DNA of 64,000 bases from an uncultured Moraxellaceae bacterium (GTDB taxonomy: Bacteria > Pseudomonadota > Gammaproteobacteria > Pseudomonadales > Moraxellaceae): positions 17,539 through 81,538 of the forward strand of contig CAJXOR010000001.1 of NCBI GenBank assembly GCA_913057715.1, in the 5' to 3' direction. This document shows positions 1 through 59,263 of this stretch, in pieces. The position numbers and the translations under genes are program-made. Position 1 is the first letter of the stretch, and each line of letters starts with the position of its first letter. The notes under the pieces were generated by a model. The model was not told the origin of the DNA. It was given only the letters and a program-made list of their open reading frames with translations, and made no database searches.

Positions 1-319
1 GCATCAGCCGAGTCAGCTCGCTTTGGTTAAGGTTGCTGCGTCCACTGAGTTTGAGTTTGGTTTTTTGACGGGTTTTGAGGATCGCGAGGTCCTGGCTATC
101 GCTGGTTCGGGCATAGACAAAGCAGCGTTCATGCTCAAAGTGGATAAAACGGCGCGCATCGATGTGGCGAAAGCTCTTGCCACGAAACAAGATGTAGATC
201 GACTCAAGCAGACTCGTCTTACCGGAGCCATTTGGTCCAAAAAACAGGTTGCAGCGGGTTAGGGGTAGATCAATCTTGCCCAGATTGCGCACGCCCTGCA
301 CGCTGAGCCTTGTTAACAC
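1..319 (-). CDS. recF: DNA replication/repair protein RecF, N-terminal part (gene runs off the window edge)
   Basis: Absent from the ORF track (edge-truncated, GTG start at 319). My minus-strand translation from 319 reads VLTRLSVQGVRNLGKIDLPLTRCNLFFGPNGSGKTSLLESIYILFRGKSFR, with Walker A GPNGSGKTS. It follows the canonical dnaA-dnaN-recF order. Confidence 0.85.
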   Translation of the reverse strand, partial: MLTRLSVQGVRNLGKIDLPLTRCNLFFGPNGSGKTSLLESIYILFRGKSFRHIDARRFIHFEHERCFVYARTSDSQDLAILKTRQKTKLKLSGRSNLNQSELTRLM

Positions 320-355
320 CGCAGGTCAATCACGTCAGTTCGCCGCAAAAGCAAA

Positions 356-1510: not shown

Positions 1511-1649
1511 GATAGAAACCCTTTTTTATTAAAAATGTCACCGATGGACACCGCTGAGTTTAGCAAAACTACGACCCTCAGGGCACATCGATAAAGTAGC
1601 CCATAAATTAACGCATAATTAAATTTAGCGCTCAATAAAACAGGGATCA

Positions 1650-2948
1650 TCAGCGCTCAAGCAAACGCATGATCTGCTGATAATCCTGCTCAACTTGGTG
1701 ATCATCAACGATCATTTTCTCAATCGTATCGACCGCATGCATCACCGTTGAGTGATCACGCCCGCCAAAGGCGGCGCCGATGTCGGGGTAACTTAAACTG
1801 GTGAGTTTTCGAGCGATGTGCATGGCAATTTGACGAGGACGGGCAATTGCTCGGGTGCGCTTTTTACCCAGCATGTCTTTGATGTTTAAACCGAAGTGCT
1901 CGCTCACCACCTTTTGGATGTTGGGGAGGCTCGCGGTCTGCTGACGAATCGAGATGATGTCTTTTAGGGCATTTTGTACCAGCGGCAAATCAATCGGGGT
2001 GTCTTTAAAGCGCGCGACAGCCACCACCTTGTTGAGCGCTCCCTCAAGCTCACGCACGTTAGCCACCACGTGACGGGCGATGAACTCAGCGCAATCTACC
2101 GGCAGCTGCTTAGAAACCCGTTCGGCCTTTTTGGTCAAAATCCCCACCCGGGTATCAAAGTCTGGTGGCTCAACCCCAACCGAGAGTCCCCAAGAAAAGC
2201 GTGATTTTAAGCGCTCATCAAAGTCGTTCATGGAGGAGGGGTAGCGATCAGCGGCGAGCACCAACTGTTTGCCGCTTGCGATCAAATCGTTGAACAAGGA
2301 CAAAAACTCGAGGCTGCTTTTGTCTTTTTTAGCCAGCATGTGGATGTCATCGACTAAGAGCAGATCACAATCACGGGTTTTTTTCTTAAACGCATCGACG
2401 TTATCGCCGCGTACGCTTGAGACAAACTGATTGATGAACTGCTCAGAGGTCATGTACAGCACCCGCTTGCCCTCAGCTTGAACTTCATGACCCAACGCGT
2501 GCATCAGGTGAGTTTTACCCAAGCCGGTTGAGCCATACAAAAACAAAGGGTTGTGTTCGCTGCTGCCGAGGTTCTCTAGAACATGCCGAGCTGTTTCAAA
2601 TGCCATGTGATTGGATTCACCGACAAAAAACTGCTCAAAAGTGAATTGGGGGTTAAGCTGCTGCTGTCTGAGCTTTTTTTCTTTGATCGCTGGTGTGTCG
2701 CTTGGCACTTGGATCAGTACCTGTTCCGCCTCGCCGCGCGAAGCAAACTTGGCAAAGGACTGAATCTGACCCAAATAGTTCTCGGTGACATGTTTGACAA
2801 ATTGCTGGTTGGGGGCGTTTAGCGTCAAGCTTCCTTGGGTGGTTTTAGGCGCGACTTTGAGCGGCTCCACCCACAGGGCGTAATCCTTTTCACCAATCTC
2901 AGCGCGCAGGGCTTCAGCGCAACGCTTCCACAGGGCATCCATGCTCAT
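1650..2948 (-). CDS. dnaA: Chromosomal replication initiator DnaA
   Basis: AAA+ Walker A GSTGLGKTHL, Walker B LLLVDDIH, and C-terminal DNA-binding helix GGRDHSTVMHA. The ORF is open from 2978, but the start MSMDALWKRC at 2948 is more plausible. Confidence 0.96.
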   Translation of the reverse strand: MSMDALWKRCAEALRAEIGEKDYALWVEPLKVAPKTTQGSLTLNAPNQQFVKHVTENYLGQIQSFAKFASRGEAEQVLIQVPSDTPAIKEKKLRQQQLNPQFTFEQFFVGESNHMAFETARHVLENLGSSEHNPLFLYGSTGLGKTHLMHALGHEVQAEGKRVLYMTSEQFINQFVSSVRGDNVDAFKKKTRDCDLLLVDDIHMLAKKDKSSLEFLSLFNDLIASGKQLVLAADRYPSSMNDFDERLKSRFSWGLSVGVEPPDFDTRVGILTKKAERVSKQLPVDCAEFIARHVVANVRELEGALNKVVAVARFKDTPIDLPLVQNALKDIISIRQQTASLPNIQKVVSEHFGLNIKDMLGKKRTRAIARPRQIAMHIARKLTSLSYPDIGAAFGGRDHSTVMHAVDTIEKMIVDDHQVEQDYQQIMRLLER

Positions 2949-3083
2949 AAAAACCTCAAAAACCAATAACAAATGCAAAATTGCTCAAAATCTACTCATA
3001 TCGCCCGTATTCCCTGAGGGGGTTGGGATGCGATTTAGTCTACCCAAGTTGAGTAGATTACGCCAAAGTTTTTATCAAGGATA

Positions 3084-3658
3084 TGTGGATAATTATGTTT
3101 ATAGCTTTGCTCATAACTTGGGCAGAATCAGGGGGTTAAAAGCAACCATCAAATTATCCCCTGATCACCTCCCAACCTTAGGATTAAAAAGTAATCAGGT
3201 TATACACATGGTAAGATACTGAATCTTATATATTTTTATGATTTATCCTAATTTTCTACTGTCCCTTATCATCTTCAATCTTCTTTTTCTTTAAAAAAAC
3301 ATAAAGAGATGATTGATTGGTTTTCTCAAGATTTTCGGATTGTTAAGTACTTAAATTAAACTGGTTAATTTTTGATCAATAAGCAAATGTCAAGAAATCA
3401 TCTTTTTTCCAGACCATCTGGTTTTTTTCTTAAAACTATAAAAAATGGGCTTGAGGACAGATCTGTTAAAAGTTGTGGGTAAGTAGTGGATAAGCTGTGT
3501 AAAACTGAACAAGCTTAAGATGTTTTACAAAGATAAAGCATAGCTTTAATCTGAGTCAGATCTACTTATTGTTAGAGGTTTGGATCAATTATTGACCTTA
3601 GGATGGATTGGGTTAGTTACATACAAGTTGATTGAATCAGTTTTTTAACTGTGGATAG
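3084..3658. promoter_or_regulatory. DnaA-box cluster in the AT-rich dnaA-rpmH intergenic region (dnaA autoregulation and/or oriC candidate)
   Basis: Perfect TGTGGATAA (the reverse complement of TTATCCACA) at 3084-3092. 8/9 boxes at 3485-3493 (AGTGGATAA) and 3650-3658 (TGTGGATAG). A 7/9 box at 3243-3251. This is an 800-bp non-coding, very AT-rich spacer at the point where coding strands diverge. Confidence 0.6.
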
Positions 3659-3783
3659 TTTTATCATTCACCTGAAAAGCCCAAATAGATGGGTATTTTA
3701 GGGATAAAGTGCGGTTATGGGATTGCGCCTGCGATCAAAAGCGACTAAACTTTCGCCTCTTGTAATTTTGCCGGGGTAGTCCC

Positions 3784-3918
3784 ATGAAACGCACTTTTCA
3801 GCCTACAAATCTAAAGCGTAAACGCGTCCATGGTTTCAGAGCACGTATGGCCACCAAAAAAGGTCGTCAGGTTTTGGCGCGTCGCCGCGCTAAAGGCCGT
3901 CACAAATTGACGGTGTGA
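3784..3918 (+). CDS. rpmH: 50S ribosomal protein L34
   Basis: Below the ORF-track size cut-off. My translation is [44 protein letters not shown], the canonical L34 sequence, directly upstream of rnpA. Confidence 0.95.
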
Positions 3919-3934
3919 CTTTGAAGCACTGATT

Positions 3935-3958
3935 AAGCGCCTTTTGGCGCTTTTTTTT
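3935..3958 (+). terminator. Rho-independent terminator/attenuator after rpmH
   Basis: Hairpin AAGCGCC-TTTT-GGCGCTT followed by a T-run. Confidence 0.6.
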
Positions 3959-3989
3959 CGCCTGATTTGCTTGAAAAACAGGAGCGGAC

Positions 3990-4481
3990 GTGGACAACAG
4001 CCTGCCAAAAACCGATCGACTGCTCAAGCCAACTGACTTTGCTCAGGTGTTCTCAAACACCCGGCTTAAAGTCCATACCGATCACTTGATTGCACTGATT
4101 GGCTTAACTCAGATTGCAGTTGCGGTCGATGAGACTGCTGCTTTGAGCGCGCCTGATCCTAAACCTAACCAGGTGCGATTGGGTCTGGCAGTCAGTAAAA
4201 AAAAGCTCAAAAAGGCGGTGGATCGAAATCGGCTCAAGCGACTGATTCGCGAACAGCACCGATTGCAAAAGGATCACTTAGCGCAGATTTTGCGTCAGCA
4301 TAATTTGGGTGATTTGGATCTGGTGTTGGTATGTAAGCGCACCCCCGTCGATATGCACGGGGCCTTGTTTGCAGAGTCGAGTGAGCTTTACATTAAGCTG
4401 GCCAGAAAGTTGGTTCAGATCAACCAGCCAGTGAAACCTGCCCGGCGTGCTCATACTCGATCGGATAAGAAAACCAGTTAA
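3990..4481 (+). CDS. rnpA: Ribonuclease P protein component (longer than usual at 163 aa)
   Basis: It occupies the conserved position after rpmH. It has basic RnpA-like motifs ([25 protein letters not shown]), a GTG start, an internal insertion and a basic C-terminal tail. Confidence 0.85.
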
Positions 4482-4522
4482 GCGCGATTACTTTACTCAC
4501 AACAGATGATGCTGCGCTTGAT

Positions 4523-4864
4523 ATGATCCCAGTAGGAAGCTCAAACCTTGATTCACTCACGGGGCCTGCGCCAATCAAAACCTTGCTTTTATCGCTGATA
4601 CAACTCTACCGGCGCTTTTTAAGCCCAGCGCTTGCGCCGCGCTGTCGGTTCTACCCCACTTGTTCGGCTTACTGCGCCGAGGCGATCGCCCTGCATGGAG
4701 CTGGCAGGGGCACTTGGCTTGGCCTTAAGCGCATCGCGCGCTGCCACCCCTTTGGCGGATCGGGCGTCGATTTTGTGCCTGGCAGTGTTGGCTATCGAAT
4801 TGCCCGCCGATCTCACCACTGTGTTTATCTATCCAAACGACAAGCTGATTCATCTAAGGATTGA
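4523..4864 (+). CDS. yidD: Membrane protein insertion efficiency factor YidD
   Basis: [62 protein letters not shown] matches the YidD signature. It sits between rnpA and yidC. The exact start is uncertain. Confidence 0.8.
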
Positions 4865-5066
4865 AGCGCTCCGCCTAGCTAGATGCGAGTACCAAATTGA
4901 TAAAATGCGCACGCTCTCTGCTTGGTTTGCGGTGTCAAGCGTGGGCATTTTGCTGGGCTTTACTCAGGCTTAAGATCAAAGCGCAGCAGTTGGGAATCTG
5001 GCGTAAAAATTTAGTATCATGCACAGCATTTGCCAGCGCTTAAGCTGGCGCAAGCATAGGACAAAC

Positions 5067-6803
5067 ATGCAACCAATCAAACTGCTCAGGCTTTTGGTAC
5101 TGGCCGCGATCTTTGTGGTGGCTTACTTTTTGCTGCAAGCGTGGCGTAGCGACTATGTAATCGGTGCCTCCAGCGCCCCTGCCGCATCTGAACCAGCAGC
5201 CAATCTAGCGAGCAATCCTGCAACCATGGCCCCGCCAGCGACTGGCGCTCCGGTTACAGGCGCTCCTGCAAACGATGAAGCCAATCCGCTGGTGCCTGAG
5301 GCGTTTAATCCGAGTAGCGCTGCTAGCGGCGACACGGCAGCGAGCGCTCCTAATGCGGTAGTTTCAGGCAGTCTGATCACGGTGAACACGGATCTGTATT
5401 TGCTGCAGATTGATCCGGCTGGCGGCGATATCGTGTCGCTCAAATTAAAAAACTACACCACAGAGCTCGATAACAACGTGCCCTTCACGCTGTTTGAAAA
5501 CGACTCGCGGGTTTATAAAGCGGTCTCCGGCCTAAACGGCACCGACGGTATCGATGTCACCTCGCGCGCACCCTTCACCGCGCCGGCGCAAAACTTTGAT
5601 ATGGGTGAGGCAGGCGAGCTCATCGTGCCGCTCAGCTACACTGACGCGGCGGGCCGTGTGTTCACTAAGCGCTTTAGCTTTAAGCGCGGGGAGTACCCGA
5701 TTGATGTGTCTTATCAGATCAACAACCAATCAGATACTCCTTGGCAGGGCGGGTTTTATGCGCAATTGGTCCGCGACGCATCATCCGACCCTGGCATGCA
5801 GAACAACGGCTTTATGGGCCTCGCGACTTACCTGGGCGCTGCTTGGGGCACTGAAGCTGATCCTTACAACAAGCTTAAGTTTAAAAACTTCGGCGATGAC
5901 GCGATCAACTTATCCACCGACAGCGGCTGGATCGCCATGCTGCAGCACTACTTCTTAAGCAGTTGGTTGGTACCAAACGATACCCAAGCGCAGCTCTCCT
6001 CGAACCAGTCAAATGGCCTCTATGTCATGACCATGACGCTGCCGCAAACCACGGTTGCTCCTGGCACCATCGGTAGCATGGGTGCGACGCTTTACGCCGG
6101 TCCTAAGCTTCAGGACACGCTGGATCAGCTCAACCCTACTCTTGATCAGACCGTGGACTACGGTTTCCTTTGGCCAATCGCCAAGGTGATGTTTGAGATC
6201 CTGCAAAAGATCCACAGTGTGCTGGGCAATTGGGGTTGGTCGATCATCGTGCTGACCATCTTGATCAAGTTGGCATTTTTGTGGATATCGAACAAAGCCT
6301 ACCGTTCGATGGCGAAGATGCGCTTGATCGCTCCCAAGATGCAGCGCATGAAAGAAGAGTTTGGCGAGGACCGCATGCGCTTCTCTCAAGAGATGATGAA
6401 GCTGTACAAAGAGGAGAAAGTGAACCCGATCTCAGGTTGCTTGCCGCTTTTGATCCAGATGCCATTTTTCTTAGCGTTTTATTGGGTGTTGGTGGAGAGC
6501 GTGGAGCTCAGACATGCGCCGTGGATTCTGTGGATTCAGGATCTCTCGAGCATGGACCCTTACTTTATCTTGCCGATCTTCATGGGCGCGAGCATGTACG
6601 TGTCGCAGATGTTGAACCCGCAGCCAACCGATCCAACTCAGGCCAAGGTGTTTAAGATCCTGCCGATCATCTTCACTGCGTTCATGTTGTTTTTCCCGGC
6701 GGGTCTGGTGCTTTACTGGACGGTCAACAATCTGTTCACCCTGACTCAGCAGTACGTGATCAACAAGCAGATCGAAAAAGAGGCCGCCGCTCGCGAGGCC
6801 TGA
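5067..6803 (+). CDS. yidC: Membrane protein insertase YidC
   Basis: The C-terminal core NWGWSIIVLTILIKLAFLWISNKAYRSMAKMRLIAPKMQRMKEEFGEDR...GCLPLLIQMPFFLAFYWVL is typical of YidC. The likely start is MQPIKLLRL at 5067, although the ORF is open from 5019. An Ala/Pro-rich linker follows TM1. Confidence 0.95.
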   Translation: MQPIKLLRLLVLAAIFVVAYFLLQAWRSDYVIGASSAPAASEPAANLASNPATMAPPATGAPVTGAPANDEANPLVPEAFNPSSAASGDTAASAPNAVVSGSLITVNTDLYLLQIDPAGGDIVSLKLKNYTTELDNNVPFTLFENDSRVYKAVSGLNGTDGIDVTSRAPFTAPAQNFDMGEAGELIVPLSYTDAAGRVFTKRFSFKRGEYPIDVSYQINNQSDTPWQGGFYAQLVRDASSDPGMQNNGFMGLATYLGAAWGTEADPYNKLKFKNFGDDAINLSTDSGWIAMLQHYFLSSWLVPNDTQAQLSSNQSNGLYVMTMTLPQTTVAPGTIGSMGATLYAGPKLQDTLDQLNPTLDQTVDYGFLWPIAKVMFEILQKIHSVLGNWGWSIIVLTILIKLAFLWISNKAYRSMAKMRLIAPKMQRMKEEFGEDRMRFSQEMMKLYKEEKVNPISGCLPLLIQMPFFLAFYWVLVESVELRHAPWILWIQDLSSMDPYFILPIFMGASMYVSQMLNPQPTDPTQAKVFKILPIIFTAFMLFFPAGLVLYWTVNNLFTLTQQYVINKQIEKEAAAREA

Positions 6804-6816
6804 TTTGATGCGCTTT

Positions 6817-6846
6817 AAGCCGCCCCTTGTGGGCGGTTTTTTTTGT
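6817..6846 (+). terminator. Rho-independent terminator after yidC
   Basis: Hairpin AAGCCGCCC-CTTGT-GGGCGGTTT followed by a T-run. Confidence 0.7.
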
Positions 6847-6935
6847 TCTAAGTATTTGCTCAGGCCAGTTTTTAAGGCTTTAAGTAAAATGCCCTCGCTA
6901 GTCAGATCGGCGAAGCGTCAAGGCTGAGCTACGAG

Positions 6936-7224
6936 TTATCCCGAGCTATCCATCAATTAATCACAACTAACCCGCAGAGTTAACCTCAGATTTATCCACA
7001 GCTGGGACGGACTAATTTGATGATTGGTCATATGAGCTTAAGTTGTTCTGGTTCAATGCTCAGCTTATCCCGGAGTTATCCGCAGGGTTATACGCGCAAG
7101 ATTTTAAGTTATCCACAGTCGGTTGAGATATCCACCGAGTATGATCAGCTTATTTACTGCTTATACCTCGGTTATCTATTAGATATACCTAAGTTATCAC
7201 TGGTTTATCCAGTGCTTATACCCA
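6936..7224 (+). promoter_or_regulatory. Phased array of DnaA-box-like 9-mers (oriC candidate) between yidC and mnmE
   Basis: Perfect TTATCCACA boxes at 6992-7000 and 7109-7117. Same-orientation variants start at 6936, 6946, 7065, 7076, 7088, 7128, 7150, 7161, 7172, 7183, 7194, 7205 and 7216. The last seven are spaced exactly 11 bp apart. An AT-rich tract at 7225-7345 follows. Confidence 0.65.
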
Positions 7225-7384
7225 GATTGTCCTCAATCTAACTTATTAAAAAACAACATAATTATTGGTTTATCCTCAGATAAAAAGACATTTTACTCAA
7301 TAAATAAACCGCGCTCATAAACGATCTATTTTTAAAAACCAGCATGAGGATAGATTTGCTAGCATGGCGCTATCAAGTGGAGCT

Positions 7385-8755
7385 ATGGATAACTTTGTGA
7401 ACACTTCTACCATCGCCGCGATCGCAACGGCGCAAGGGGCAGCCGGAGTGGCAATCGTGCGCTTAAGCGGGCCGCGCGCACTGGCGATTGCCTGTGAGCT
7501 AAGCGGCAAGGTCGATCTGCAGCCTAGACAGGCGGTGTACGCGCGGGCGCTGGCTAGCGATGGCTCGCTGATTGATCAAGGGGTGCTGATTTACTTTAAA
7601 GCGCCAAACTCCTTTACCGGAGAGGAAGTGGTCGAGTTTCAGGGGCATGGCGGGGTGCAGCTCCCAAGACTGGTGCTGGCGCGCTGTTTTGAGCTTGGCG
7701 CCGTGCAGGCGGGGCCGGGTGAGTTTTCCGCGCGCGCTTATCTGAACAACAAGATGGACCTGCTGCAGGCAGAGAGCATCGCCGATGCGATCCACGCCAG
7801 CTCTGAGGCTGCCGCGCGGGGTGCTGTGCGCTCGCTCTCAGGTGAGTTCTCCTCACGCGTCGATGCGCTGCTCGCGGATCTGATTCACCTCAGGCTTTAT
7901 GTGGAGTCCTCCATCGATTTTCCTGATGAGGAAGGGGTGGAGTTTTTGGGGGATCAGCAGTTAAGCGGGTTGCTGGGTAAAGTTGAAGTTGATCTTGAGT
8001 CGCTTGCGCGTGCGGCCAAACAGGGGCAGCTGCTCAGAGACGGGGCGAATCTGGTGATCGCCGGACTCCCAAACGCCGGTAAATCTAGTCTGCTAAACGC
8101 ACTGGCCGGAGTCGATCGGGCGATAGTGACCTCTGAGGCTGGTACCACGCGCGACGTGCTGACTGAGCACCTGCTCATCGATGGACTGGCTTTAAATGTC
8201 ACTGATACCGCAGGGCTGCGCGACACCGACAACTTAGCTGAGCAAATCGGTATCGAGCGCGCTCGCGCGGCGATCCAGGCGGCGGATCTGCTGCTGGTGG
8301 TGTTTGATGTCACCCAGATCAGTGATCCCTTTGCACACGCTCAGGCGCTGCTGCAAACTGATACGGAGACTGAGTTCGATCCCAGCCGCCTGCTGCTCGT
8401 AGCCAACAAAGTAGATCTGCTCGAAACCAACCCGCATAACCAAGATCAGAACCTGCTCAGTATCTCAGCCAAACATGGCGCGGGTCTGGATAGACTGAAA
8501 AATGCCATCCATGAACGCATCGGTTTTGATCCGCAGCCTGACGCTCTGATCGCGCGCACTCGCCACCTAGATGCGCTGCTCAGAGTCTCTGGGTTTGTGG
8601 AGGAGGCGCGGACGCAGCTTAGCATTTACGCCTCAGGTGAGCTTGCTGCTGAAAGCCTGCGCCTTGCTCAAGAAGCGCTCTCAGAGATCACCGGAGAGTT
8701 CACCTCAGATGATTTGCTGGGTGAGATCTTTGGCTCGTTTTGTATCGGCAAGTGA
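7385..8755 (+). CDS. mnmE: tRNA modification GTPase MnmE (TrmE/ThdF)
   Basis: N-terminus TIAAIATAQGAAGVAIVRLSG, G-domain GLPNAGKSSLLNAL and DTAGLR, and the conserved C-terminal FCIGK*. The likely start is MDNFVN at 7385, although the ORF is open from 7364. Confidence 0.95.
   Translation: MDNFVNTSTIAAIATAQGAAGVAIVRLSGPRALAIACELSGKVDLQPRQAVYARALASDGSLIDQGVLIYFKAPNSFTGEEVVEFQGHGGVQLPRLVLARCFELGAVQAGPGEFSARAYLNNKMDLLQAESIADAIHASSEAAARGAVRSLSGEFSSRVDALLADLIHLRLYVESSIDFPDEEGVEFLGDQQLSGLLGKVEVDLESLARAAKQGQLLRDGANLVIAGLPNAGKSSLLNALAGVDRAIVTSEAGTTRDVLTEHLLIDGLALNVTDTAGLRDTDNLAEQIGIERARAAIQAADLLLVVFDVTQISDPFAHAQALLQTDTETEFDPSRLLLVANKVDLLETNPHNQDQNLLSISAKHGAGLDRLKNAIHERIGFDPQPDALIARTRHLDALLRVSGFVEEARTQLSIYASGELAAESLRLAQEALSEITGEFTSDDLLGEIFGSFCIGK
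8725..8753 (+). repeat. Left direct repeat (att-like) in the mnmE 3' end
   Basis: 28 of 29 nt are identical to 18050-18078. Confidence 0.85.
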
Positions 8756-8924
8756 ATATGAAGTTTAATGAAGCTGAGACAAGAGTAAATTATTTTAAGC
8801 TGAGCTATTTTCTAAGTTTGAATTTTAAAAAAGATCACATTATTTGTATAAGATGAAATAGCAAAAATTAATCAAAAGTGAACTTAACCCAGCATTTTTG
8901 CTTCAGAGAGTTTGTATATTGAAA

Positions 8925-11900
8925 ATGATCGATAACATCAACTCCCTTTTAGGAGATGACCTGAAAAAAAGTATCAAGCCGGATATTCGCTTGATGATCG
9001 CTGCGTCCAGCTTTTCTATTTATGCATTTGAAGCACTTAAAAAAGAGCTATCGAAGGTGGACAGCCTGCAGTTCATATTTACTGCCCCAACCTTTATACC
9101 AACCGAAGTGACTGATCGCCCTTACAAAGAACGGCGTGAGTTTTTTATCCCAAAGGCACGTCGTGAAAGTGGCCTATATGGAACCGAGTTTGAAATTAAG
9201 CTGCGCAATAAGCTGACGCAACGAGCGGTAGCGCGCGAATGTGCTGATTGGATCCGGAAGAAGGCGAAGTTCAAATCGAATACGTCTAAGGCGCCTATGC
9301 AGCAATTCATACATATCGACAGCTCTGCTGAAGGCATCGCCTACATGCCCATCAGTGGCTTCACCGCAGTCGATCTTGGCTACCAAAAGGGCGATGCCGT
9401 TTCCAATTTTGTGACGAAGTTTGACGACCCAAACCACGCACAGATATATCTTCAACTTTTTAATCAGATCTGGGCAGACCCAGAGAAGGTCAAAGACGTC
9501 ACGGACGCGATCTGTGATCATATTGAGTCTGTCTATCAAGAGAATTCACCCGAGCGAATCTATTTCATGATGCTTTACAATATTTTTCAGGATTTTCTGG
9601 AAGATATCGACGAAGACGTGTTGCCAAATGATTTGACGGGCTATCAGGATAGCCTCGTCTGGAACAAGTTGTTCAATTTCCAGAAGGATGCGGCAACCGG
9701 CATCATCAATAAGCTTGAGACCTACAACGGCTGCATTCTGGCTGACAGCGTTGGCTTGGGGAAAACGTTCACAGCGCTTGCTGTCATCAAGTATTATGAG
9801 CTTCGTAACCGTTCTGTCTTGGTACTATGCCCAAAGAAACTCGCAGACAATTGGCTTAACTACAACACCAACCTGACCACGAACATTTTTGCTAAAGATC
9901 GTTTTAACTATGATGTCCTCTGCCACACAGACCTATCGAGGACTTCGGGCGAGTCATTTGGGATGCCTTTAAACCGGATAAATTGGGGCAATTACGATCT
10001 CGTTGTGATCGACGAGTCCCATAACTTCCGCAACAACGACGTCTACAAGGATCGCGAGACCCGCTACCAGAAGCTGATGAACAAGGTCATTCGCGCTGGC
10101 GTGAAAACCAAAGTACTCATGTTGTCGGCCACGCCTGTAAATAACCGTTTCACCGATCTTCGCAACCAGCTTGCCCTCGCATATGAAGGCCAGTCTGAAA
10201 GCCTAAGCCGTAACTTGAAGACCGACACGAGCGTTGAAGAGATCTTCAAGCGAGCTCAGAAAGCCTTTAACAGTTGGTCGCTACTGCCCCCGGATGAACG
10301 AAACGCTGCGTCGATCCTTAAGGCGCTCGATTTCGACTTCTTCGAGCTTCTCGACGCTGTCACGATTGCCCGCTCGCGCAAGCATATCGAGACCTTCTAC
10401 GACACCAAGGACATCGGTAAATTCCCTCAACGCCGTAAACCACTGTCCTACCATTGCCCTATTACCCATCGTGACGATGTGATGGGGCTGAACGAGATCT
10501 TTGAACAGCTCTCGGTCCTCAAGCTGTCTGTTTACGCACCAATCAGCTACATCCTTCCAAGCCGCCTGCGGAAGTACGAAGAAATCTATGACACCCTAGT
10601 CGAAGGGGGACGTGGCAAGCTGCGTCAAGCTGACCGTGAGCGCAGTCTGCAAGCTTTGATGACAACTAACTTACTTAAGCGTTTGGAGAGTTCGGTTGAA
10701 GCGTTCCGACTTACTCTGCGCGCCCTCGCTGCAAACATATCACGGACGCTAACAGCGATCGGTGAATTCGAGCGATCCAGCGGCACGCAAAGCGTCAGTG
10801 ATTACTTGGCTGATGTTGAAACACTGGACGCTGAAGATGACGAACTTGAGGGCTTGAGTGAATTTACGGTTGGCAAGAAGGTTCAGATCAGCCTCGCAGA
10901 TATGGATTTACCGTCTTGGAAACAGGATCTTCAGGCCGATCTTATTCTGATAGACGATCTGGTCGCTTCTATGGACAAAGTCCGACCCGAGGACGATGCC
11001 AAGCTCCAGCACTTACAAGATATTATTACCCGTAAAGTTGGCGCGCCAATTAACCCGGGAAATAAGAAAGTGCTTATCTTTACGGCGTTCGCGGACACGG
11101 CAAACTACCTCTTTGCAAACCTTGCCCCTTTCGCAAAGGATCTCGGGCTGCACACCGCAAAGGTAACTGGCTCGGATTCACCGAAGACCACTCTCAAAAA
11201 AAGCTATGATTTCCAGGGCGTCTTGACGTTGTTTTCACCTCGCTCGAAGGATAAGGACGTCATCCTGCCGGACGAACCAGCAGAGATTGATATTTTGATT
11301 GGCACGGACTGTATCTCAGAAGGCCAAAACCTTCAGGACTGCGACTATCTGATCAACTACGACATCCACTGGAACCCAGTGCGAATCATCCAACGCTATG
11401 GGCGCATCGACCGTATTGGCTCACCGAATTCCCAGATCCAACTGGTAAACTACTGGCCTGACATTTCGCTGGACGACTATATCAACCTCAAAGAGCGTGT
11501 AGAAAACCGGATGGTGATCGCCGATATGGTGGGTACCGGTGACGACAACGTGCTGACGGCAAAAAGTGGTGACATCGCCTACCGAAGGGATCAGCTCAAG
11601 CGCCTGCAGGAAGAGGTCATCGATCTTGAAGACGTCAAGACCGGCGTCTCGATCACTGACCTTGGTCTGAACGATTTCCGGATGGATCTGCTGAACTACG
11701 CCAAGCAGCACGGCCAGCTTAACAACCTGCCAAACGGCATGCATGCCGTGGTGCCAGCGCAAGCCCAAATGGGGCTCCGTCCCGGCGTAATCTTCGCGCT
11801 GAAAAACATACACGATACCGTGAACATCAACCAGCAAAACCGGCTCCACCCCTTCTATCTGGTCTACATCGCCGACGACGGAGAAATCATCGCAGACCAT

Positions 11901-12203
11901 ACCGAGGTCAAGCGCCTGCTCGACCTGATTCGGACCAGCTGCAAGGGCCGTGAGGTCCCTGTCCCCGACGTCTGCCGCACGTTCAACGAGCGCACCGAAG
12001 ACGGCCGCAAGATGGAGCATTATTCCGGTCTGCTAAGCGCGGCGATCCGCTCCATGATTGAGGTGAAAGAGGAAAAGGATCTCGACAGCCTGTTCAGCGG
12101 TGGTCGAACGACCGCGCTGACCCACACCATCGCCGGGCTCGATGACTTCGAGCTGATCGGATTCATAATAATTGAGCCAGCGATCGATGATAGCGTCGCA
12201 TGA
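8925..12203 (+). CDS. SNF2-family (SWI2/SNF2) helicase-related ATPase with an unassigned ~260-aa N-terminal domain
   Basis: Motif I ILADSVGLGKTFTALAVI, motif II DLVVIDESHNFRN, motif III LMLSATPVNN, and C-terminal helicase motifs TDCISEGQNLQDCDYLINYDIHWNPVRIIQRYGRIDRIGS. The likely start is MIDNINS at 8925, although the ORF is open from 8898. Confidence 0.9.
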   Translation: MIDNINSLLGDDLKKSIKPDIRLMIAASSFSIYAFEALKKELSKVDSLQFIFTAPTFIPTEVTDRPYKERREFFIPKARRESGLYGTEFEIKLRNKLTQRAVARECADWIRKKAKFKSNTSKAPMQQFIHIDSSAEGIAYMPISGFTAVDLGYQKGDAVSNFVTKFDDPNHAQIYLQLFNQIWADPEKVKDVTDAICDHIESVYQENSPERIYFMMLYNIFQDFLEDIDEDVLPNDLTGYQDSLVWNKLFNFQKDAATGIINKLETYNGCILADSVGLGKTFTALAVIKYYELRNRSVLVLCPKKLADNWLNYNTNLTTNIFAKDRFNYDVLCHTDLSRTSGESFGMPLNRINWGNYDLVVIDESHNFRNNDVYKDRETRYQKLMNKVIRAGVKTKVLMLSATPVNNRFTDLRNQLALAYEGQSESLSRNLKTDTSVEEIFKRAQKAFNSWSLLPPDERNAASILKALDFDFFELLDAVTIARSRKHIETFYDTKDIGKFPQRRKPLSYHCPITHRDDVMGLNEIFEQLSVLKLSVYAPISYILPSRLRKYEEIYDTLVEGGRGKLRQADRERSLQALMTTNLLKRLESSVEAFRLTLRALAANISRTLTAIGEFERSSGTQSVSDYLADVETLDAEDDELEGLSEFTVGKKVQISLADMDLPSWKQDLQADLILIDDLVASMDKVRPEDDAKLQHLQDIITRKVGAPINPGNKKVLIFTAFADTANYLFANLAPFAKDLGLHTAKVTGSDSPKTTLKKSYDFQGVLTLFSPRSKDKDVILPDEPAEIDILIGTDCISEGQNLQDCDYLINYDIHWNPVRIIQRYGRIDRIGSPNSQIQLVNYWPDISLDDYINLKERVENRMVIADMVGTGDDNVLTAKSGDIAYRRDQLKRLQEEVIDLEDVKTGVSITDLGLNDFRMDLLNYAKQHGQLNNLPNGMHAVVPAQAQMGLRPGVIFALKNIHDTVNINQQNRLHPFYLVYIADDGEIIADHTEVKRLLDLIRTSCKGREVPVPDVCRTFNERTEDGRKMEHYSGLLSAAIRSMIEVKEEKDLDSLFSGGRTTALTHTIAGLDDFELIGFIIIEPAIDDSVA

Positions 12204-12907
12204 CAGGCTTCTTCGACTATCCCAAAAGCGCTGCCTTCGGCCGGGTTCTGCCCAAGAACAAGATCTACGAACACGCAGGCGCAAACACTGCCCTCAAGGA
12301 TCTGTTCGTGCGTGAGGTCGATCAGATCGTCTGGCGCTACAAGCTCGCGCCAGAAACGATCAACCTGAGCGCTACCAAATCGGTGGCCGAAATTCAGATC
12401 TTCAGCATCTCGCTGAAAACCGGCAAGCTGGACGAGACCGTTCTGCGCGCCATAGATAAGGCTATACCGTTTCCCCTGATCTTCGAGTTGAGCCATGGCG
12501 GCAAACGCAGGGCCATGGCGGCCTACAAGCGGCCGAGCGAGGCCGACAGCGCGAAGTGGGTGATCAGCGAGTACTTTGCCACCAACTGGGTGGCCGATAC
12601 CGCCGCCAGGTCGCCCCTGCCGGTCGCGCTCAACCTTGGTGGGCTTTATGACGCGCTTCTGTCCGGCTTGATGCCACAACAGGTTCAGGCGGCACCCGGA
12701 CAGAGCGCGGAAGACATACAGATCCGTGTCGAGCGGATGGAGGCGATCCGCGCCAAGACGCGAGATGTTGAACGGATCAAGGCGCGGCTGGCGCGCGAGA
12801 AGCAATTCAACAAGCGCGTGGCGATTAACGCAGAGCTGCGCGAAGCGAAATTGGAACTAAAACAGCTCACCGGGGCAAAGGCCCCGATGAGCGCACCGAG
12901 TGAATAA
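12200..12907 (+). CDS. DUF4391-like protein with a C-terminal coiled-coil, function unknown
   Basis: 235-aa ORF whose ATG overlaps the SNF2 stop (ATGA at 12200-12203). From memory, the N-terminal region FFDYPKSAAFGRVLPKNKIYEHA...IVWRYKLAPETINL...IPFPLIFEL resembles DUF4391 family members. The C-terminus is charged and heptad-like (RVERMEAIRAKTRDVERIKARLAREKQFNKRVAINAELREAKLELKQL). Confidence 0.7.
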   Translation: MTGFFDYPKSAAFGRVLPKNKIYEHAGANTALKDLFVREVDQIVWRYKLAPETINLSATKSVAEIQIFSISLKTGKLDETVLRAIDKAIPFPLIFELSHGGKRRAMAAYKRPSEADSAKWVISEYFATNWVADTAARSPLPVALNLGGLYDALLSGLMPQQVQAAPGQSAEDIQIRVERMEAIRAKTRDVERIKARLAREKQFNKRVAINAELREAKLELKQLTGAKAPMSAPSE

Positions 12908-12914
12908 GAGGACG

Positions 12915-14855
12915 ATGAGCATGGATAAGATGAAACTGCATAGCCCCGACCTGAGCCAGGACAACATCGCCAAGATCCGCGCTCTGTTCCCCGGCTGCGT
13001 GACCGAGGCATCCGATGACAATGGCAAGCTGCGGCTGGCAATAGACTTCGATCAGCTGCGCCAAGAGCTAAGCGACCACACCGTCGAAGGTGGGCAGGAG
13101 AGGTATCGGCTGGATTGGCCCGGCAAGCGGGAAGCGATGGCGCTTGCGAACGCTCCCATCGCAAAAACGCTTCGCCCCGCACGGGATGAAAGCGTAGCTT
13201 TCGACACCACCCAGAACCTCTTTATCGAAGGCGACAACCTTGAGGCCCTGAAACTGCTGCAAGAAACCTATCTTGGCAAGGTCAAGATGATCTATATCGA
13301 CCCGCCTTATAACACGGGGAATGACTTTGTTTATGATGATGATTTTGCCGAGAGTTCGGCCGAATTTCTAGAACGCTCGAACCAGAAGGATGGTGAAGGC
13401 AATCGAATGGTTGCAAACACAACGGCCAATGGGCGCTTTCACTCCGACTGGCTTACGATGATGTTTGCAAGACTGCGACTGGCAAAAAATCTGCTCACGG
13501 ACGATGGTGCGGTGTTTGTCAGCATAGATGATAACGAGTCTGATAGCTTGATCAAAATAGGTCGAGAGATTTTTGGCGACGAGAACTTCGTCGCGCAATT
13601 GGCTGTTCAGCTTAACCCTCGAGGACGACATCTTGATCGTTTCATCGCCAACACTCATGAGTCTGTCGTTGTCTTCGTAAAGGACGGACTTAATTCCAAC
13701 TGCATTGGCGGGCTGGAAAAAGAAGGAAGAATGGCCGATGAGTACAACAGAAACGACAGTGATGGAGCGTTCAGGCTGCTTGGCCTCAGGAACCGAAACC
13801 AAGCCTTCAATCCAACCACTCGGCCGAACCTCTACTATCCCTTATATGTTTGCCCAAAAAATGGGCTGATATCTTTGATCAATGACGAACTGTTTACTGA
13901 TGAAGTTTGGCCAGATACCCCCGATGGGATTAAGACCTGCTGGACTTGGGGTAGAGAAAAAGTCTCCAAAGAAGGTAGCTTGCTACTTGCAGAAAAATCT
14001 GGAGGCGAATGGAGGATATTCCGAAAAGACTATCTTAACAAGAATGGTGAAGTCACTAAGACGATGGCTAAGTCGCTCTGGGCCGAAAAGGAAATTACGA
14101 ACGACTATGGCCGGTCTTCAGTCAAAGACCTTTTTGGCAAGGCAGTTATGGATTTCCCAAAATCGCCAGCTTTGCTGGAGCGGCTCGTAAAGATAGGTTC
14201 CAATGAAAATGACCTTATATTGGATTTTTTCGCAGGCTCATCATCAACGGCACATGCGATACTATCGACTAACGCTCGAGAAGGATGTCATCGCAGATTC
14301 ATAATGGTTCAATTGCCTGAATCTACGTCAGCAGGCTCAATAGCCCGACAAGAGGGCTATGAAACCATTTCCGAGCTATCCAAGGAACGCATTCGCCGCG
14401 CGGGTCAAAAAATCCTTGAATCGGATTGTCACACCGACTGGAACAAGGACGTCGGTTTCCGTGTCCTGAAGATCGACACGTCGAACATGGAGGACGTCTA
14501 TTACCGTCCTGACGAAGTCAAACAGGCTGACCTGCTTACCGCCGTCGACAATGTCAAACCGGACCGCACGGTCGAAGACCTGCTTTTTCAGGTGCTCGTG
14601 GACTGGGGCGTCGACCTGACGCTGCCCATCCGCCGCGAGACCGTCCAGGGCAAGACCGTGTTCTTCGTCGACGACAACGCGCTGGTCGCATGCTTTGACA
14701 CTGGCATCACCGAGGATCTGGTGAAGGAGCTGGCCGGGCATGAACCGCTGCGCGTCGTCTTCCGCGACAACGGCTTCGTCTCGGATGCGGTGAAGATCAA
14801 CGTCGAACAGATCTTCCGCCAGCTCTCCCCCACCACCGATGTTAAATCGATCTGA
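12915..14855 (+). CDS. mod: Type III restriction-modification methyltransferase (Mod), beta-class N6-adenine MTase
   Basis: Motif [21 protein letters not shown] precedes motif [15 protein letters not shown], with a variable region between them (the TRD position). ATG at 12915 follows AAGAGG; an alternative GTG lies at 12900. Confidence 0.92.
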
Positions 14856-14865
14856 GGGGAACAGC

Positions 14866-17800
14866 ATGTCAGGCGCCATGAAGTTTAAGTTCAAAGTCCA
14901 ACCCTATCAAACCAATGCTGTCGACGCCGTCGTGGACTGTTTTGCCGGTCAACCTTATGTCAGTGGCATCAACTATCGGATCGACCCCGGCCGCAAGGCA
15001 CAGACCAGCGCCTTCGAAGAAGGCTTCAAGAACGCCGATATCTCGTTGAGCGAGGCGCAGGTGCTTGCGAACGTCCAGGGTGTGCAGCGAAGCCAGAACC
15101 TGCCTTTCAGCGAAAGCCTGACCGACTTCACCGTAATCAATGGGCGTGGCGAGCGGACACCAGCGCCAGCGACCTATATCCGCGACGCGCTGGCGGCGAG
15201 CCGCTACCACCTAGACGTCGAGATGGAAACCGGCACTGGCAAGACCTATTGCTACATCAAGACTATCTTTGAGATGAACAAGCGCTTCGGCTGGTCGAAG
15301 TTCATCATCATGGTGCCCAGCATCGCCATCCGCGAAGGCGTCTACAAATCGCTTCAGATCACGGCTGACCACTTCACCGAAAGCTACGGCAAGAAGGCAC
15401 GGTTCTTCATCTACAACTCAAAGCGTCTGCATGAGCTGGAAAGCTTCTCGTCGGACGCTGGCATCAACGTGATGGTCATCAATATTCAGGCCTTTGCTGC
15501 CCGCGGTGCGGATAACCGTCGCATCTACGACGAGCTCGACGACTTCCAATCCCGCCGCCCCATCGACGTGATCGCCAGCAACCGGCCGATCCTGATCCTG
15601 GACGAGCCGCAAAAGATGCAGGGAAACGCGACGATGGAAGCGCTGCCAAAGTTCAAGCCGCTGATGGTCCTACGCTATTCGGCGACCCACAAAACCCAGC
15701 ACAACAGGATCCACCGCCTGGACGCCTTGGACGCCTACAACCAGAAGCTAGTGAAGAAGATCGCCGTACGCGGCATTCAAACGCGCGGTCTGGCCGGAAC
15801 CAATGCTTACCTCTACCTTGAGGGGATCGACATCTCGAAGAAGGCGCCGGTCGCCCGGATTGAGATGGAGGTGAAGCTGAGATCCGGCGAAATCAAACGG
15901 CAACTTCGGCGGCTGGAATTTCGCGACGACCTGTTCACGCTTTCCGGGGAGCTGGATCAGTACAAAGGCTTCACGATCTCTCAGATCGACTACAACCACG
16001 ACACGGTGGAATTCACCAACGGCGAGGTGCTTACGGCTGGCAAGGCCACAGGTGACGTGTCAGAGCACGACATCCGGCGGATCCAGATCCGCGAGACTAT
16101 CAAAGCTCACTTGGATAAGGAAAAGCAGCTCTTCGCTCAAGGGATCAAGGTCCTTTCGCTATTTTTTATCGATGAGGTGGTTAAGTACCGCGACTACGGC
16201 CAGCCGGATGATAATGGAGAGTACGCCCGTGTTTTTGAGGAAGAGTACGAACTTTTAAAGAGCGAGTATCTCTCAGAGCTCGCTATCGACAACGAGGCCT
16301 ACCGAGCGTATCTCGCGGCGATTGACGCGACAAAGACTCATAATGGCTATTTCTCTATCGACAAAAAAACCAAACAGCTAAAGGATCCCAAAGTCGGTAA
16401 GCGAGCTGTCGATTCAGACGACGTAGATGCTTATGACCTTATCTTAAAGGACAAGGAGAGCTTGCTGACGCTACCAATGCCTTCAGACAGTGCCGATCAG
16501 CGCGCCAAAAAAGAGGTTCGATTTATCTTTTCCCACTCTGCGCTACGTGAGGGATGGGATAACCCCAATGTCTTTGTTATGTGCATGTTGAAGCACAGCG
16601 ATAACATGATCTCTAGGCGACAAGAAGTGGGTCGGGGTTTGAGGCTTTCGGTTAACCAGCAGGGTGACAGAATGGATCACTCGGCGACGGTTCATGACAT
16701 CAATGTTCTCACGGTGATCGCGAGCGAAAGCTATAAGGACTTCGTGGGCGGACTTCAAAAAGAAATTGCAGAGACCTTATCTTCACGACCCCGGCAGGCC
16801 ACCGAGGCCTACTTTACCGGCAAGACCGTTAACACCAATGCAGGCCCTATTGAAATCACGCCTGCTATGGCGAAGCAGATCTACAGGTACCTCGTTAAAA
16901 ATGACTACACGGACGACGCTGATCAAATCACTGACGACTATCACAAGGCAAAGGAAGCGGGTACGCTGGCTGAACTGCCAGATGAATTGAGGCCGCATGC
17001 CGATCAGGTATTTGAACTTATTGACAGCGTGTTCAGCGATGCACAGCTGCCTAAGGTTGACGATGGGCGAAAACCAAAAACTAATCCTCTTAACGCCAAC
17101 TTTGAAAAAAAGGAGTTCCAGGAGCTCTGGTCCCGGATCAATCGGAAAGCCGTCTATCGCGTGGACTTCGACTCAGTTGAATTAGTTCGAAAATGTGTCA
17201 GCGCTCTCGATAGCCAGCTCCGCGTGACGCCGCTCCAATATACCGTTCAAGCAGGCATTCAGGCAGATGAGATGACTGACGACCAGTTAAAAGCTGGTGA
17301 CGGTTTCGAGGTGACTACCACTTCCACTCAATACGGTGATTCGGTATTCTCCAGAGTCAAATATGACTTGGTTGGCAAGATCGCAGAAAGCTCTAAACTC
17401 ACACGCCGATCAACCGCCGAAATCCTTTCGGGCTTACAGGCTGTTGTCTTTGCCCAGTTTCAGCAGAATCCGGAGCACTTCATAGCAGAGGCTATAAGAC
17501 TTATAGCTGAGCAGAAGGCGACGATGATCATCGAGCGTCTGAGCTATGACGAGATCGACAATCACTACGATGTCGATATCTTCACTGCTAGTCAGACCGG
17601 TCAAGATTTTTCACGCGCAAGCGCAAAGTTAAAAAAGCACGTCTATGACTACGTTGTCACCGACTCAAACGTCGAAAAGCGGTTTGTGGCAGAGCTGGAT
17701 ACCAGTTCAGAAGTGGTTGTTTATGCGAAGCTTCCTCGCGGTTTTCTGATCCCAACGCCAGTTGGAGACTACAATCCTGACTGGGCAATCTCTTTTAAGA

Positions 17801-17997
17801 ATGAGGGCGTGAAGCATATCTATTTTGTAGCTGAAACCAAGGGCTCGATGTCAACGATGAAGCTACGTGAGATCGAGAAGACCAAGATTGAGTGCGCCAG
17901 AAAGTTTTTTAAAGAAATTGGACGGAAGATCTCGCAAGATAAGGTGAAATATGAGGTGGTCGATAATTACTCTCGTCTTGTCGATATCATCAGATGA
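14866..17997 (+). CDS. res: Type III restriction enzyme Res subunit (helicase plus PD-(D/E)xK nuclease)
   Basis: Motifs [24 protein letters not shown] and LRYSATH, the C-terminal helicase region [18 protein letters not shown]...QEVGRGLRL, and nuclease YNPDWAISF...[11 protein letters not shown] at 14866 follows GAGGGGA; the ORF is open from 14839. Confidence 0.92.
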
Positions 17998-18049
17998 AAA
18001 AGATCTACTAAAAATTAATTGATTAAACTCCTCGCGTTTTACTCTTTAG

Positions 18050-18078
18050 GATCTTTGGCTCGTTTTGTATTGGCAAGT
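18050..18078 (+). repeat. Right direct repeat (att-like), a duplicated mnmE 3' end
   Basis: 28 of 29 nt are identical to 8725-8753. In the mnmE frame it encodes IFGSFCIGK followed by TAG. Confidence 0.85.
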
Positions 18079-18214
18079 AGTAGCTGTGCTTTTGTAGCCG
18101 GTAGGTAAGGTGGATGAGCTGCACTTGAATTAAACAGCAAGTCGGCGGATTGAATCTTCAGCTGATTTGATCAGCCAACTGAGTTGATACGCTTTAATTG
18201 ATAGGACTAAGATC

Positions 18215-36413: not shown

Positions 36414-36583
36414 GCTAAAGAGAAAACTTCAGGCAATATGCGGGCTAGTGAGAGCTATGCCGATAGTGAATTTGCGGAGCTAATTCAATCTTGGCGAAAG
36501 CACGGCATAGAGATAAAGGTTTGTGACAAGACCAATCAAGGTTGGGAATTAACTTTGAAAGATATACCCACAAAAGAGAGTGG

Positions 36584-37363: not shown

Positions 37364-37423
37364 TGGCTGAACTCCAAATTCCTTTAGGTTACTTTAACCG
37401 CACCAATTAAATATCACACAAAT

Positions 37424-37447
37424 AAAAAACCCCGCTTTCGCGGGGTT
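37424..37447 (-). terminator. Rho-independent terminator after dnaK
   Basis: The minus strand reads AACCCCGC-GAAA-GCGGGGTT followed by a T-run. Confidence 0.8.
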
Positions 37448-37465
37448 TCTTTTAACAAGACAACC

Positions 37466-59262: not shown

Positions 59263-59263
59263 A

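Follow-up and report, generated by a model that had tools for sequence, protein, structure and literature searches.

Introduction

Type III restriction-modification (R-M) enzymes hemimethylate an asymmetric site. For cleavage they spend a brief burst of ATP and then slide passively along DNA in one dimension, cutting only upon collision with a second bound enzyme in the inverse orientation. They are treated everywhere as systems of two genes, mod and res, and annotation tools call just Mod and Res at loci of the kind described here. Herein we analyze a locus at positions 8925–17997 of a 64,000-nucleotide stretch from an uncultured Moraxellaceae bacterium (GenBank assembly GCA_913057715.1, contig CAJXOR010000001.1, positions 17,539–81,538; “the window” denotes this whole stretch), in which the Mod-Res pair follows the genes for a SNF2-family ATPase and a small protein of the family DUF4391. 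An earlier note, made from the DNA letters alone, had proposed these four genes as a composite defence system. Judged by its sequences, the combination of Mod-Res with a SNF2 motor and DUF4391 is a large, ancient and very mobile lineage, which spans Proteobacteria, Firmicutes, Bacteroidota, Chlorobi and Archaea and is found on integrative and conjugative elements (ICEs), on plasmids and in uropathogenic E. coli CFT073. We consider it probable that the locus is a defence system of four components that derives from Type III R-M, and that SNF2 and DUF4391 act in it as a dependent accessory motor module.

Results

Four genes in a fixed order

The locus comprises the following genes:

8925..12203, + strand: SNF2-family ATPase, 1092 aa (Pfam SNF2-rel_dom and Helicase_C)
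12200..12907, + strand: DUF4391 protein, 235 aa (Pfam PF14335)
12915..14855, + strand: Type III Mod, 646 aa (PADLOC MTase_III; homology to EcoP15I Mod)
14866..17997, + strand: Type III Res, 1043 aa (PADLOC REase_III; Pfam ResIII and RE_endonuc)

These forward-strand open reading frames (ORFs) are present in the sequence as the earlier note had placed them, and all four are genuine genes rather than chance ORFs. The DUF4391 start overlaps the SNF2 stop in an ATGA at 12200–12203, and the two genes are predicted to be translationally coupled. The DUF4391 stop is a TAA at 12905–12907, with AAGAGG at 12906–12911 ahead of the Mod ATG at 12915, and the Mod stop is a TGA at 14853–14855, with GAGGGGA at 14854–14860 ahead of the Res ATG at 14866. 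Junction positions and ribosome-binding sites are as previously read, except that the spacer between DUF4391 and Mod measures 7 nt instead of 8. The ORF list also offers alternative starts at TTG 8898 (SNF2), GTG 12900 (Mod) and ATG 14839 (Res); the ATG starts at 8925, 12915 and 14866 are favoured because of the N-termini of homologues (M-I/K-IDN...) and the ribosome-binding sites.

With a DUF4391 alignment as query, a scan of a single genome for each GTDB species yielded 324 confirmed relatives, and the surroundings of the best 80 of these were resolved with tblastn. The 80 loci belong to Alpha-, Gamma- and Deltaproteobacteria, Bacteroidota, Chlorobiaceae, Binatia and Bdellovibrionales, and in every one of them (80/80) DUF4391 is immediately preceded by SNF2 and has Mod downstream. 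Res comes after Mod in 69 of the 80; ten of the other 11 loci stop at a contig edge, and the last (L071) is decayed. The complete order SNF2-DUF4391-Mod-Res was likewise found in 11/11 distant plasmid contexts bearing a DUF4391 gene whose product is 21–42% identical, both in Proteobacteria (E. coli IncFIB, Acinetobacter, Vibrio IncC, Shewanella and Paraburkholderia) and beyond (Lactococcus, Brochothrix, Listeria, B. cereus, Enterococcus and the archaeon Methanomethylovorans), with a small helix-turn-helix (HTH) gene often preceding the four genes on distant plasmids. The 4-nt overlap of SNF2 and DUF4391 (ATGA) is kept from archaea to proteobacteria. The SNF2 family is present on 148 plasmid records and the Res family (E<=1e-60) on 147, with a near-identical genus distribution, and 54 of 5,426 complete E. 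coli genomes hold at least 80% of the CFT073-type locus. SNF2-DUF4391 without Mod-Res was never seen in about 100 contexts. The linkage of the four genes exceeds chance: the earlier note had placed this neighbourhood in proteobacterial genomes, and its recurrence is borne out and is far wider, with the preferential association of DUF4391 and SNF2 homologues with Mod/Res, for which a neighbourhood check had been suggested, present at all 80 genome loci as well as in the 11 plasmid contexts.

Co-divergence was measured as the Spearman ρ of identity to the window proteins across loci. SNF2 vs DUF4391 gave the highest value of the operon pairs (ρ 0.85), with DUF4391 vs Res at 0.72 and SNF2 vs Res at 0.70, and the Mod N-terminus vs the other proteins ranged from 0.14 to 0.25, a decoupling that is consistent with specificity shuffling in Mod. 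Linkage, co-transfer (see below) and co-divergence together support the proposal that SNF2 and DUF4391 would work with the R-M module.

Boundaries and transfer of the cassette

The four genes sit within a cassette that is delimited by the following features:

8725..8753, + strand: left copy of a 29-bp direct repeat (GATCTTTGGCTCGTTTTGTATCGGCAAGT), the final mnmE bases; left cassette boundary
8754..8924, + strand: AT-rich cassette leader, presumed promoter region (from the sequence); missing from the empty site
18050..18078, + strand: right copy of the 29-bp direct repeat, with one mismatch (T18071); right cassette boundary

Four metagenomic relatives with MnmE in the same 90%-identity cluster (L100–L103) carry the empty site as mnmE-NUDIX-198aa-MPG, with a gap of 133 nt from mnmE to NUDIX, and in a three-way alignment L100 follows the window up to 8753 and resumes at 18050. 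Positions 8754–18049 are thus an insertion of 9.3 kb that holds exactly four genes, and the empty-site comparison indicates that these were acquired as one unit; to the right, the chromosome continues with a NUDIX gene at 18215. We judge the cassette to be horizontally acquired. Its nucleotide composition is also distinctive, the coding strand having an AT skew of +0.10 to +0.14 that the flanks do not share.

As in a genomic island, the repeats duplicate the target and an empty site exists, whereas an integrase or recombinase of its own is absent: neither integrase, excisionase nor mobilisation genes were found within the 9.3-kb cassette. It may rely on mobilisation in trans, or it may be all that is left of a larger island. 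Genomic islands of the SGI1 type integrate at the 3' end of mnmE (trmE). The cassette is like them in that its direct repeat duplicates the mnmE 3' end, and differs in lacking all three of the above gene classes and carrying four defence genes only.

A copy of the cassette with 88% nucleotide identity is carried by an ICE of the alphaproteobacterium Rhodophyticola, where it is flanked by the gene for a BrxR-type WYL regulator on one side and by GmrSD on the other. The homology extends from 5 nt before the SNF2 ATG to 27 nt before the Res stop and is interrupted solely at the Mod specificity region (13465–14349), where the target recognition domain (TRD) is replaced. The leader (8754..8924) is without DNA similarity to the ICE-borne copy, in which homology begins at 8920. 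Unlike many homologous loci, the cassette has no WYL/BrxR regulator gene in this leader, and a scan for promoter and terminator consensus sequences gave no convincing match and was uninformative. The locus adjoins the replication origin (gyrB-recF-dnaN-dnaA, then rnpA-yidC-mnmE); window positions 1–8755 are this origin region (dnaN, dnaA, rnpA, yidC, mnmE), and a low-GC stretch at 2001–4000 takes in a portion of dnaA together with the gap between dnaA and rnpA.

The Mod-Res core

Mod is by homology a beta-class N6-adenine methyltransferase, in which the DPPY motif IV precedes the FxGxG motif I, and it matches Pfam N6_N4_Mtase, PADLOC MTase_III (E 1.9e-216) and EcoP15I Mod (PDB 4zcf_A, E 2.3e-53). 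The TRD spans roughly aa 258–408 (about nt 13686–14138), and homologues are alignable only over aa 2–260 and 400–646. Res has the features of a superfamily 2 (SF2) helicase-like ATPase (GTGKT with K126, DEPQ at 246–249, SAT) with a C-terminal PD-(D/E)xK nuclease (D972, E990 and K992 in NPDW...ETK), and it matches PADLOC REase_III (E 0, 1093 bits) and EcoP15I Res (PDB 4zcf_C, E 3.7e-66). All the catalytic motifs quoted for these two proteins in the earlier note were found in their translations. At 8925–17997 both Mod and Res therefore have the homology on which a Type III function is predicted, while the operon consists of four genes here and not of two.

The SNF2 protein

The SNF2 translation carries GLGKT, DESH, SAT and QRYGRIDRIG. 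Its motor is intact (Walker A K280, DESH at 363–366, Helicase_C lobe at 709–832), with a mean column identity of about 95% in the N-lobe, and homologues from other classes are 71–95% identical. Residues 1–245 form a conserved domain to which neither Pfam nor PDB profiles gave a match, and the C-terminal region (about 860–1092) is conserved and without annotation. The one full-length match is to PADLOC PDLC01075, “C3a139 HKD+Snf2” (E 7.5e-128, residues 2–1081 vs profile positions 5–945 of 948), an unnamed cluster whose only definition is its proximity to type III CRISPR loci (Shah et al. 2019, PMC6546367). We rejected the reading of the N-domain as an HKD nuclease that this label implies, as no His or Lys is invariant across 15 diverse homologues, the sole candidate His (“FIHID”) is not conserved in SNF2 homologues, the HxK(x)4D catalytic motif of PLD/HKD nucleases was not found in the domain, and neither Pfam PLD nor PDB profiles matched it (hhalign vs a PLD protein: probability 0.4%). 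With no conserved catalytic His or Lys, the N-domain is therefore unlikely to be a nuclease, which leaves Res as the only predicted one.

The DUF4391 protein

The 235-aa product had been described as “DUF4391-like”, and the family is right but the suffix too weak, since the protein is a true member by Pfam, matching PF14335 over its full length (E 3.4e-60, 204.3 bits vs a cut-off of 29.9, profile positions 1–232). It had also been called a small coiled-coil protein; small it is, but instead of a coiled coil alone, the AlphaFold2 model shows a globular alpha/beta domain (about 1–160) followed by a C-terminal helical hairpin (173–223). This model was built from a 107-sequence alignment of 50%-identity representatives (pLDDT 94.3, pTM 0.87), and a shallow alignment of 26 sequences that were at least 69% identical gave an unusable model (pLDDT 51). 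Foldseek vs PDB and BFVD returned no match at E<=1e-3 (best E 0.02–0.04, TM about 0.2), sequence and profile searches of PDB sequences returned nothing at E<0.6, and none of 5027 PADLOC models matched. A PD-(D/E)xK reading of E64, D86 and K110 was dropped, as strand order and Foldseek gave it no support.

DUF4391 homologues formed 1,672 clusters at 50% identity (E<=1e-3), nearly all of them stand-alone proteins of 215–260 aa, in which P8, K19, W45, L49, E64, L82, D86, K110, P141, L149, Y150 and Q202 are near-invariant. The versions in Listeria and Brochothrix retain the N-terminal domain only. DUF4391 is the fastest-diverging of the four proteins: where it is 21–26% identical, SNF2 is 42–44%, Mod 34–39% and Res about 33% identical. 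Among unusual relatives, P0352 is fused to half an SNF2 and probably arose by a deletion, and P0326 carries a tail of 490 aa without annotation. Homologues with 37% and 26% identity are encoded on MT836075.1 and MT836122.1, respectively, a pair of 13-kb contigs from human faeces that are labelled “Bacteriophage sp.” and carry no annotation.

Variants and neighbours of homologous loci

Res proteins of the same family occur with Mod alone on a S. epidermidis plasmid (Res 43% identical) and on a Hydrogenophilus plasmid, and a second locus of the window also has Mod-Res alone. A Cupriavidus taiwanensis plasmid (L095, 2838–10991) encodes an HTH protein, a DrmD-type SNF2 and Type III Mod and Res with no DUF4391; this SNF2 is recognised by PADLOC as DrmD (E 9e-215) and does not share its N-domain with the cassette SNF2, so that Type III systems have gained SNF2 motors independently on at least two occasions. 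A SNF2 of 29% identity is accompanied by a PglX/MmeI-like methyltransferase but not by Res. On the B. cereus plasmid pMRY14-0057_1 (L091, 3098–16831), DrmA-DrmB lie directly upstream of SNF2-DUF4391-Mod-Res on the same strand, and this locus may be a DISARM/Type III hybrid.

Additional genes lie between the four in some loci. A UvrD-like helicase gene is present in E. coli 0H26 and Aquabacterium and as a remnant in CFT073. In E. coli 0H26 (L001) it encodes 900 aa and sits between DUF4391 and Mod at 15437–18139, and the mod gene of this strain is split by IS30; in CFT073 (L082, 6090–6601) the first 99 and last 88 codons remain, pointing to an internal deletion. A MORC/GHKL identity was considered for this extra “ATP-binding” gene of E. 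coli and rejected, the product being a UvrD-like superfamily 1 (SF1) helicase. Seven loci (L053, L057, L061, L063, L067, L072 and L078) have a protein of ~555 aa with Schlafen AlbA_2 and HATPase_c_4 domains between Mod and Res, and further inserts in some loci encode a PLD protein, RhuM or second Mod proteins. The flanks of homologous loci contain WYL/BrxR regulators, GmrSD, SIR2-HerA, AAA_14-DUF4143, AddAB-like pairs, DrmA-DrmB, integrases and ICE genes.

Annotation and literature

No named system covers the four genes in PADLOC and Pfam, with PADLOC assigning only Mod and Res (as Type III R-M), and NCBIfam has no model above cut-off for the SNF2 or the DUF4391 protein. The earlier note knew of no experimental characterisation, and the full texts searched likewise gave none of DUF4391 function: the “DUF4391” of a preprint on the Goslar phage is a slip for DUF7941, and a paper on TM7x merely lists the family in an enrichment table. 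The papers found on SNF2 together with Type III R-M concerned other systems only (Hma, BREX-related, ARMADA, AbiR and MORC-associated R-M), a lactococcal defensome paper and a BrxR survey counted such loci simply as Type III, and a search for the CFT073 methylome returned nothing on the SNF2-DUF4391-Mod-Res locus.

Other features of the window

The second Type III locus of the window is the following:

56236–61308, minus strand: second Type III locus with a frameshifted mod, in a low-GC (41–43%) stretch

It had been cited as a canonical two-gene paralogue, and the Mod-Res arrangement holds, but the locus is not intact, as mod is frameshifted in motif I. A TAG stop ends the mod ORF (59866–61308, 480 aa) just past motif I, with the C-terminal 200 aa encoded in a different frame (about 59917–59294). 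Adding one T to the T7 run at 59911–59917, which lies in LDFF(S)GSGST, would bring the frame back, and the frameshift may reflect a phase-variable OFF state, decay into a pseudogene or an assembly error in the homopolymer. Res2 of this locus is 34% identical to the cassette Res. Elsewhere, a cobalamin riboswitch (Rfam RF00174, 73 bits) at 45477–45609 (+) is the window's only Rfam match at gathering score, and a second low-GC stretch (45%) lies at 36001–38000 amid 53–58% GC.

Discussion

Our results are best accommodated by a Type III-derived system of four components. By homology, Mod is its site-recognising N6-adenine methyltransferase and Res its ATP-dependent helicase-like nuclease subunit, and these two constitute an EcoP15I-type core, with a swappable Mod specificity domain, that is able to exist alone elsewhere. 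SNF2 and DUF4391 probably form a complex, in which DUF4391, with its orphan fold, could be an adaptor or sensor for the double-stranded DNA (dsDNA) translocase SNF2. Since Mod-Res alone occurs and SNF2-DUF4391 alone was never seen, the dependence would run one way, with the pair needing the R-M core, or its methyl mark, and the core not needing the pair. The independent pairing of a DrmD-type SNF2 with Mod-Res in Cupriavidus, the defence genes around homologous loci and the intact motors and nuclease also speak for a four-component system. Such a module may add directional ATP-driven movement or protein-clearing to the Type III enzyme: a remodeller-type translocase, tethered or targeted by DUF4391, could drive inter-site communication or clear its path, and could extend cleavage to substrates that escape sliding enzymes. 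As the unaided enzyme communicates between sites by passive sliding only, the outcome would be a broader or stronger restriction of incoming DNA.

Several observations weigh against this interpretation. Mod-Res pairs of the same PADLOC families exist without the extra genes, so SNF2 and DUF4391 are unneeded for basic restriction-modification, and the genes that separate Mod from DUF4391 or from Res in some loci imply some modularity. Res from distant four-gene loci (about 33% identical) is no closer to the cassette Res than the two-gene Res2 (34%), hence the Res clade is not visibly specialised. DUF4391 has no recognisable DNA-binding or catalytic fold, and a full-text literature search for DUF4391, PF14335 and IPR025503, with subscription-only papers and REBASE outside its scope, found no functional study. 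The genome census, finally, covers the best 80 of the 324 confirmed relatives, plus the plasmid sample.

The more specific proposal of a distinct and widespread motor-assisted Type III class, in which an orphan-fold adaptor couples a DNA translocase of the chromatin-remodeller type to a sliding Mod2Res complex, we put forward only tentatively. If it were true, the rules of Type III enzymes would change, for example in that two head-to-head sites would be less strictly required; linear or protein-coated phage DNA might be cleaved, or inhibition of Res sensed, and the family would merit a subtype of its own.

Three other explanations for the association were weighed against a dependent motor module. 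SNF2-DUF4391 might be a DISARM- or BREX-like arm that runs parallel to Res, so that two effectors share one methyl mark, with Mod methylation serving self/non-self discrimination and the arm perhaps blocking replication or triggering abortive infection upon Res inhibition. A SNF2 protein plus a methyltransferase is the core common to DISARM class 1, ARMADA, BREX type 3 and Hma, and both the DrmA-DrmB genes directly before the four genes on B. cereus plasmids and the 29%-identical SNF2 that accompanies a PglX/MmeI-like methyltransferase without Res suit such an arm, as does the fact that SNF2-DUF4391 was never found without Mod-Res, which would be expected of a toxic effector that needs its methylase. 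We nevertheless regard a parallel effector as unlikely, because Res is kept with Mod in all contexts inspected except the decayed L071, the divergence of SNF2 and Res is correlated, and SNF2-DUF4391 has no predicted effector domain, its N-domain being without catalytic residues. A simpler explanation would be that an ordinary Type III R-M system and an unrelated SNF2/DUF4391 system travel together through the dynamics of defence islands. Defence genes often cluster, Mod-Res is able to stand alone, and UvrD-like, Schlafen/AlbA_2-HATPase, PLD and RhuM genes separate the modules in some loci; yet order and orientation are fixed, with spacers of a few nt, across phyla and down to 21% DUF4391 identity, no SNF2-DUF4391 without Mod-Res appeared in about 100 contexts, the plasmid counts are near one-to-one (148 vs 147), and the cassette here consists of just these four genes, so that independence seems highly improbable.

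The module could also serve control or establishment rather than attack, either tempering or timing restriction, so as to alleviate it or to shield the host chromosome following transfer or DNA damage, or else promoting processive methylation. A highly mobile R-M cassette could then enter new hosts safely. This would agree with the high mobility of the genes (ICE cargo, plasmids, the integrase-less cassette here), with a conservation that is unusual for defence genes (SNF2 71–95% identical across classes) and with the dedicated regulators (BrxR/WYL, small HTH proteins) that are often paired with them. The same regulators tell against it, however, as transcription regulators are already in place at many loci, and a motor of 1092 aa would be a costly way to add further control. 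We know of no SNF2 protein in restriction alleviation, which also counts against this explanation, and the proposal is conjectural and the least probable of those considered. The preferred interpretation thus remains that of a motor module dependent on the Type III core.

If SNF2 and DUF4391 alter how DNA is found or cut, they would represent a new way for Type III enzymes to overcome their problem of long-range communication. DUF4391 would gain its first function, R-M would be linked to the SNF2-plus-methylase core of DISARM, ARMADA and BREX, and the scoring of defence repertoires and of barriers to plasmid and phage transfer in clinical and industrial bacteria would change.

Comparison with known systems

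The canonical Type III enzymes EcoP15I and EcoP1I share with the cassette the order of the genes (mod-res) and of the beta-class motifs, the helicase motifs and a PD-(D/E)xK nuclease at the C-terminus; they have two genes, whereas the cassette adds the conserved and co-transferred SNF2 and DUF4391 genes before mod. The misfit with DISARM, BREX, Zorya and Druantia that the earlier note had asserted was borne out, as DrmA/B/C, PglZ and BrxC were not found here. DISARM class 1 (DrmD, DrmMI, DrmA, DrmB, DrmC) is similar in placing a SNF2-family ATPase beside an adenine methyltransferase in a defence operon. However, the cassette SNF2 scores 152.8 bits vs a cut-off of 610 with the NCBIfam model for DrmD, over the C-lobe region only, DrmB (DUF1998) and DrmC (PLD) have no match, and DrmA matches weakly and to the SNF2 motor only (E 6.9e-21); moreover, the cassette methylase is a Type III Mod and its nuclease Res, and DUF4391 is no DISARM component. 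In PADLOC, the four proteins have no match to PglZ, BrxC or PglX-type methyltransferases of BREX, with BrxHI/HII matching the motor only; ZorD of Zorya matches the motor weakly (E 2.5e-11 or worse), and Druantia yields no match.

Hma/BREX-related type 2 resembles the cassette in combining a SNF2 helicase that has an N-terminal extension with a methyltransferase and a small DUF protein, but its DUF499 ATPase and DUF3780 are not present in the cassette, whose methylase and nuclease are of Type III. The HmaA model matches the cassette SNF2 over the motor region only (E 1.1e-24), and the HKD catalytic residues are missing. ARMADA type II (ArmA SNF2-like, ArmB PglX-like, ArmC YprA-like, ArmD UvrD-like) is likewise a multi-helicase operon with a methylase, a likeness that is extended by the UvrD-like helicase added in the cassette relatives of E. 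coli 0H26 and Aquabacterium; the cassette differs in having no YprA/DUF1998 helicase and a methylase of another family, and ARMADA in having neither Res nor DUF4391. The nearest mechanistic analogy for what SNF2-DUF4391 may add is the H subunit of CglI/NgoAVII-type enzymes, a separately encoded SF2 motor that is reported to supply a restriction enzyme with ATP-driven long-range movement (PMC5861437). The parallel would be functional only, as H is a DEAD-Z1 helicase and the R subunit is Type II-like, whereas the cassette Res has its own ATPase. Accessory helicases are a familiar theme in methylation-based defence, and the core of the cassette is an ordinary Type III R-M system.

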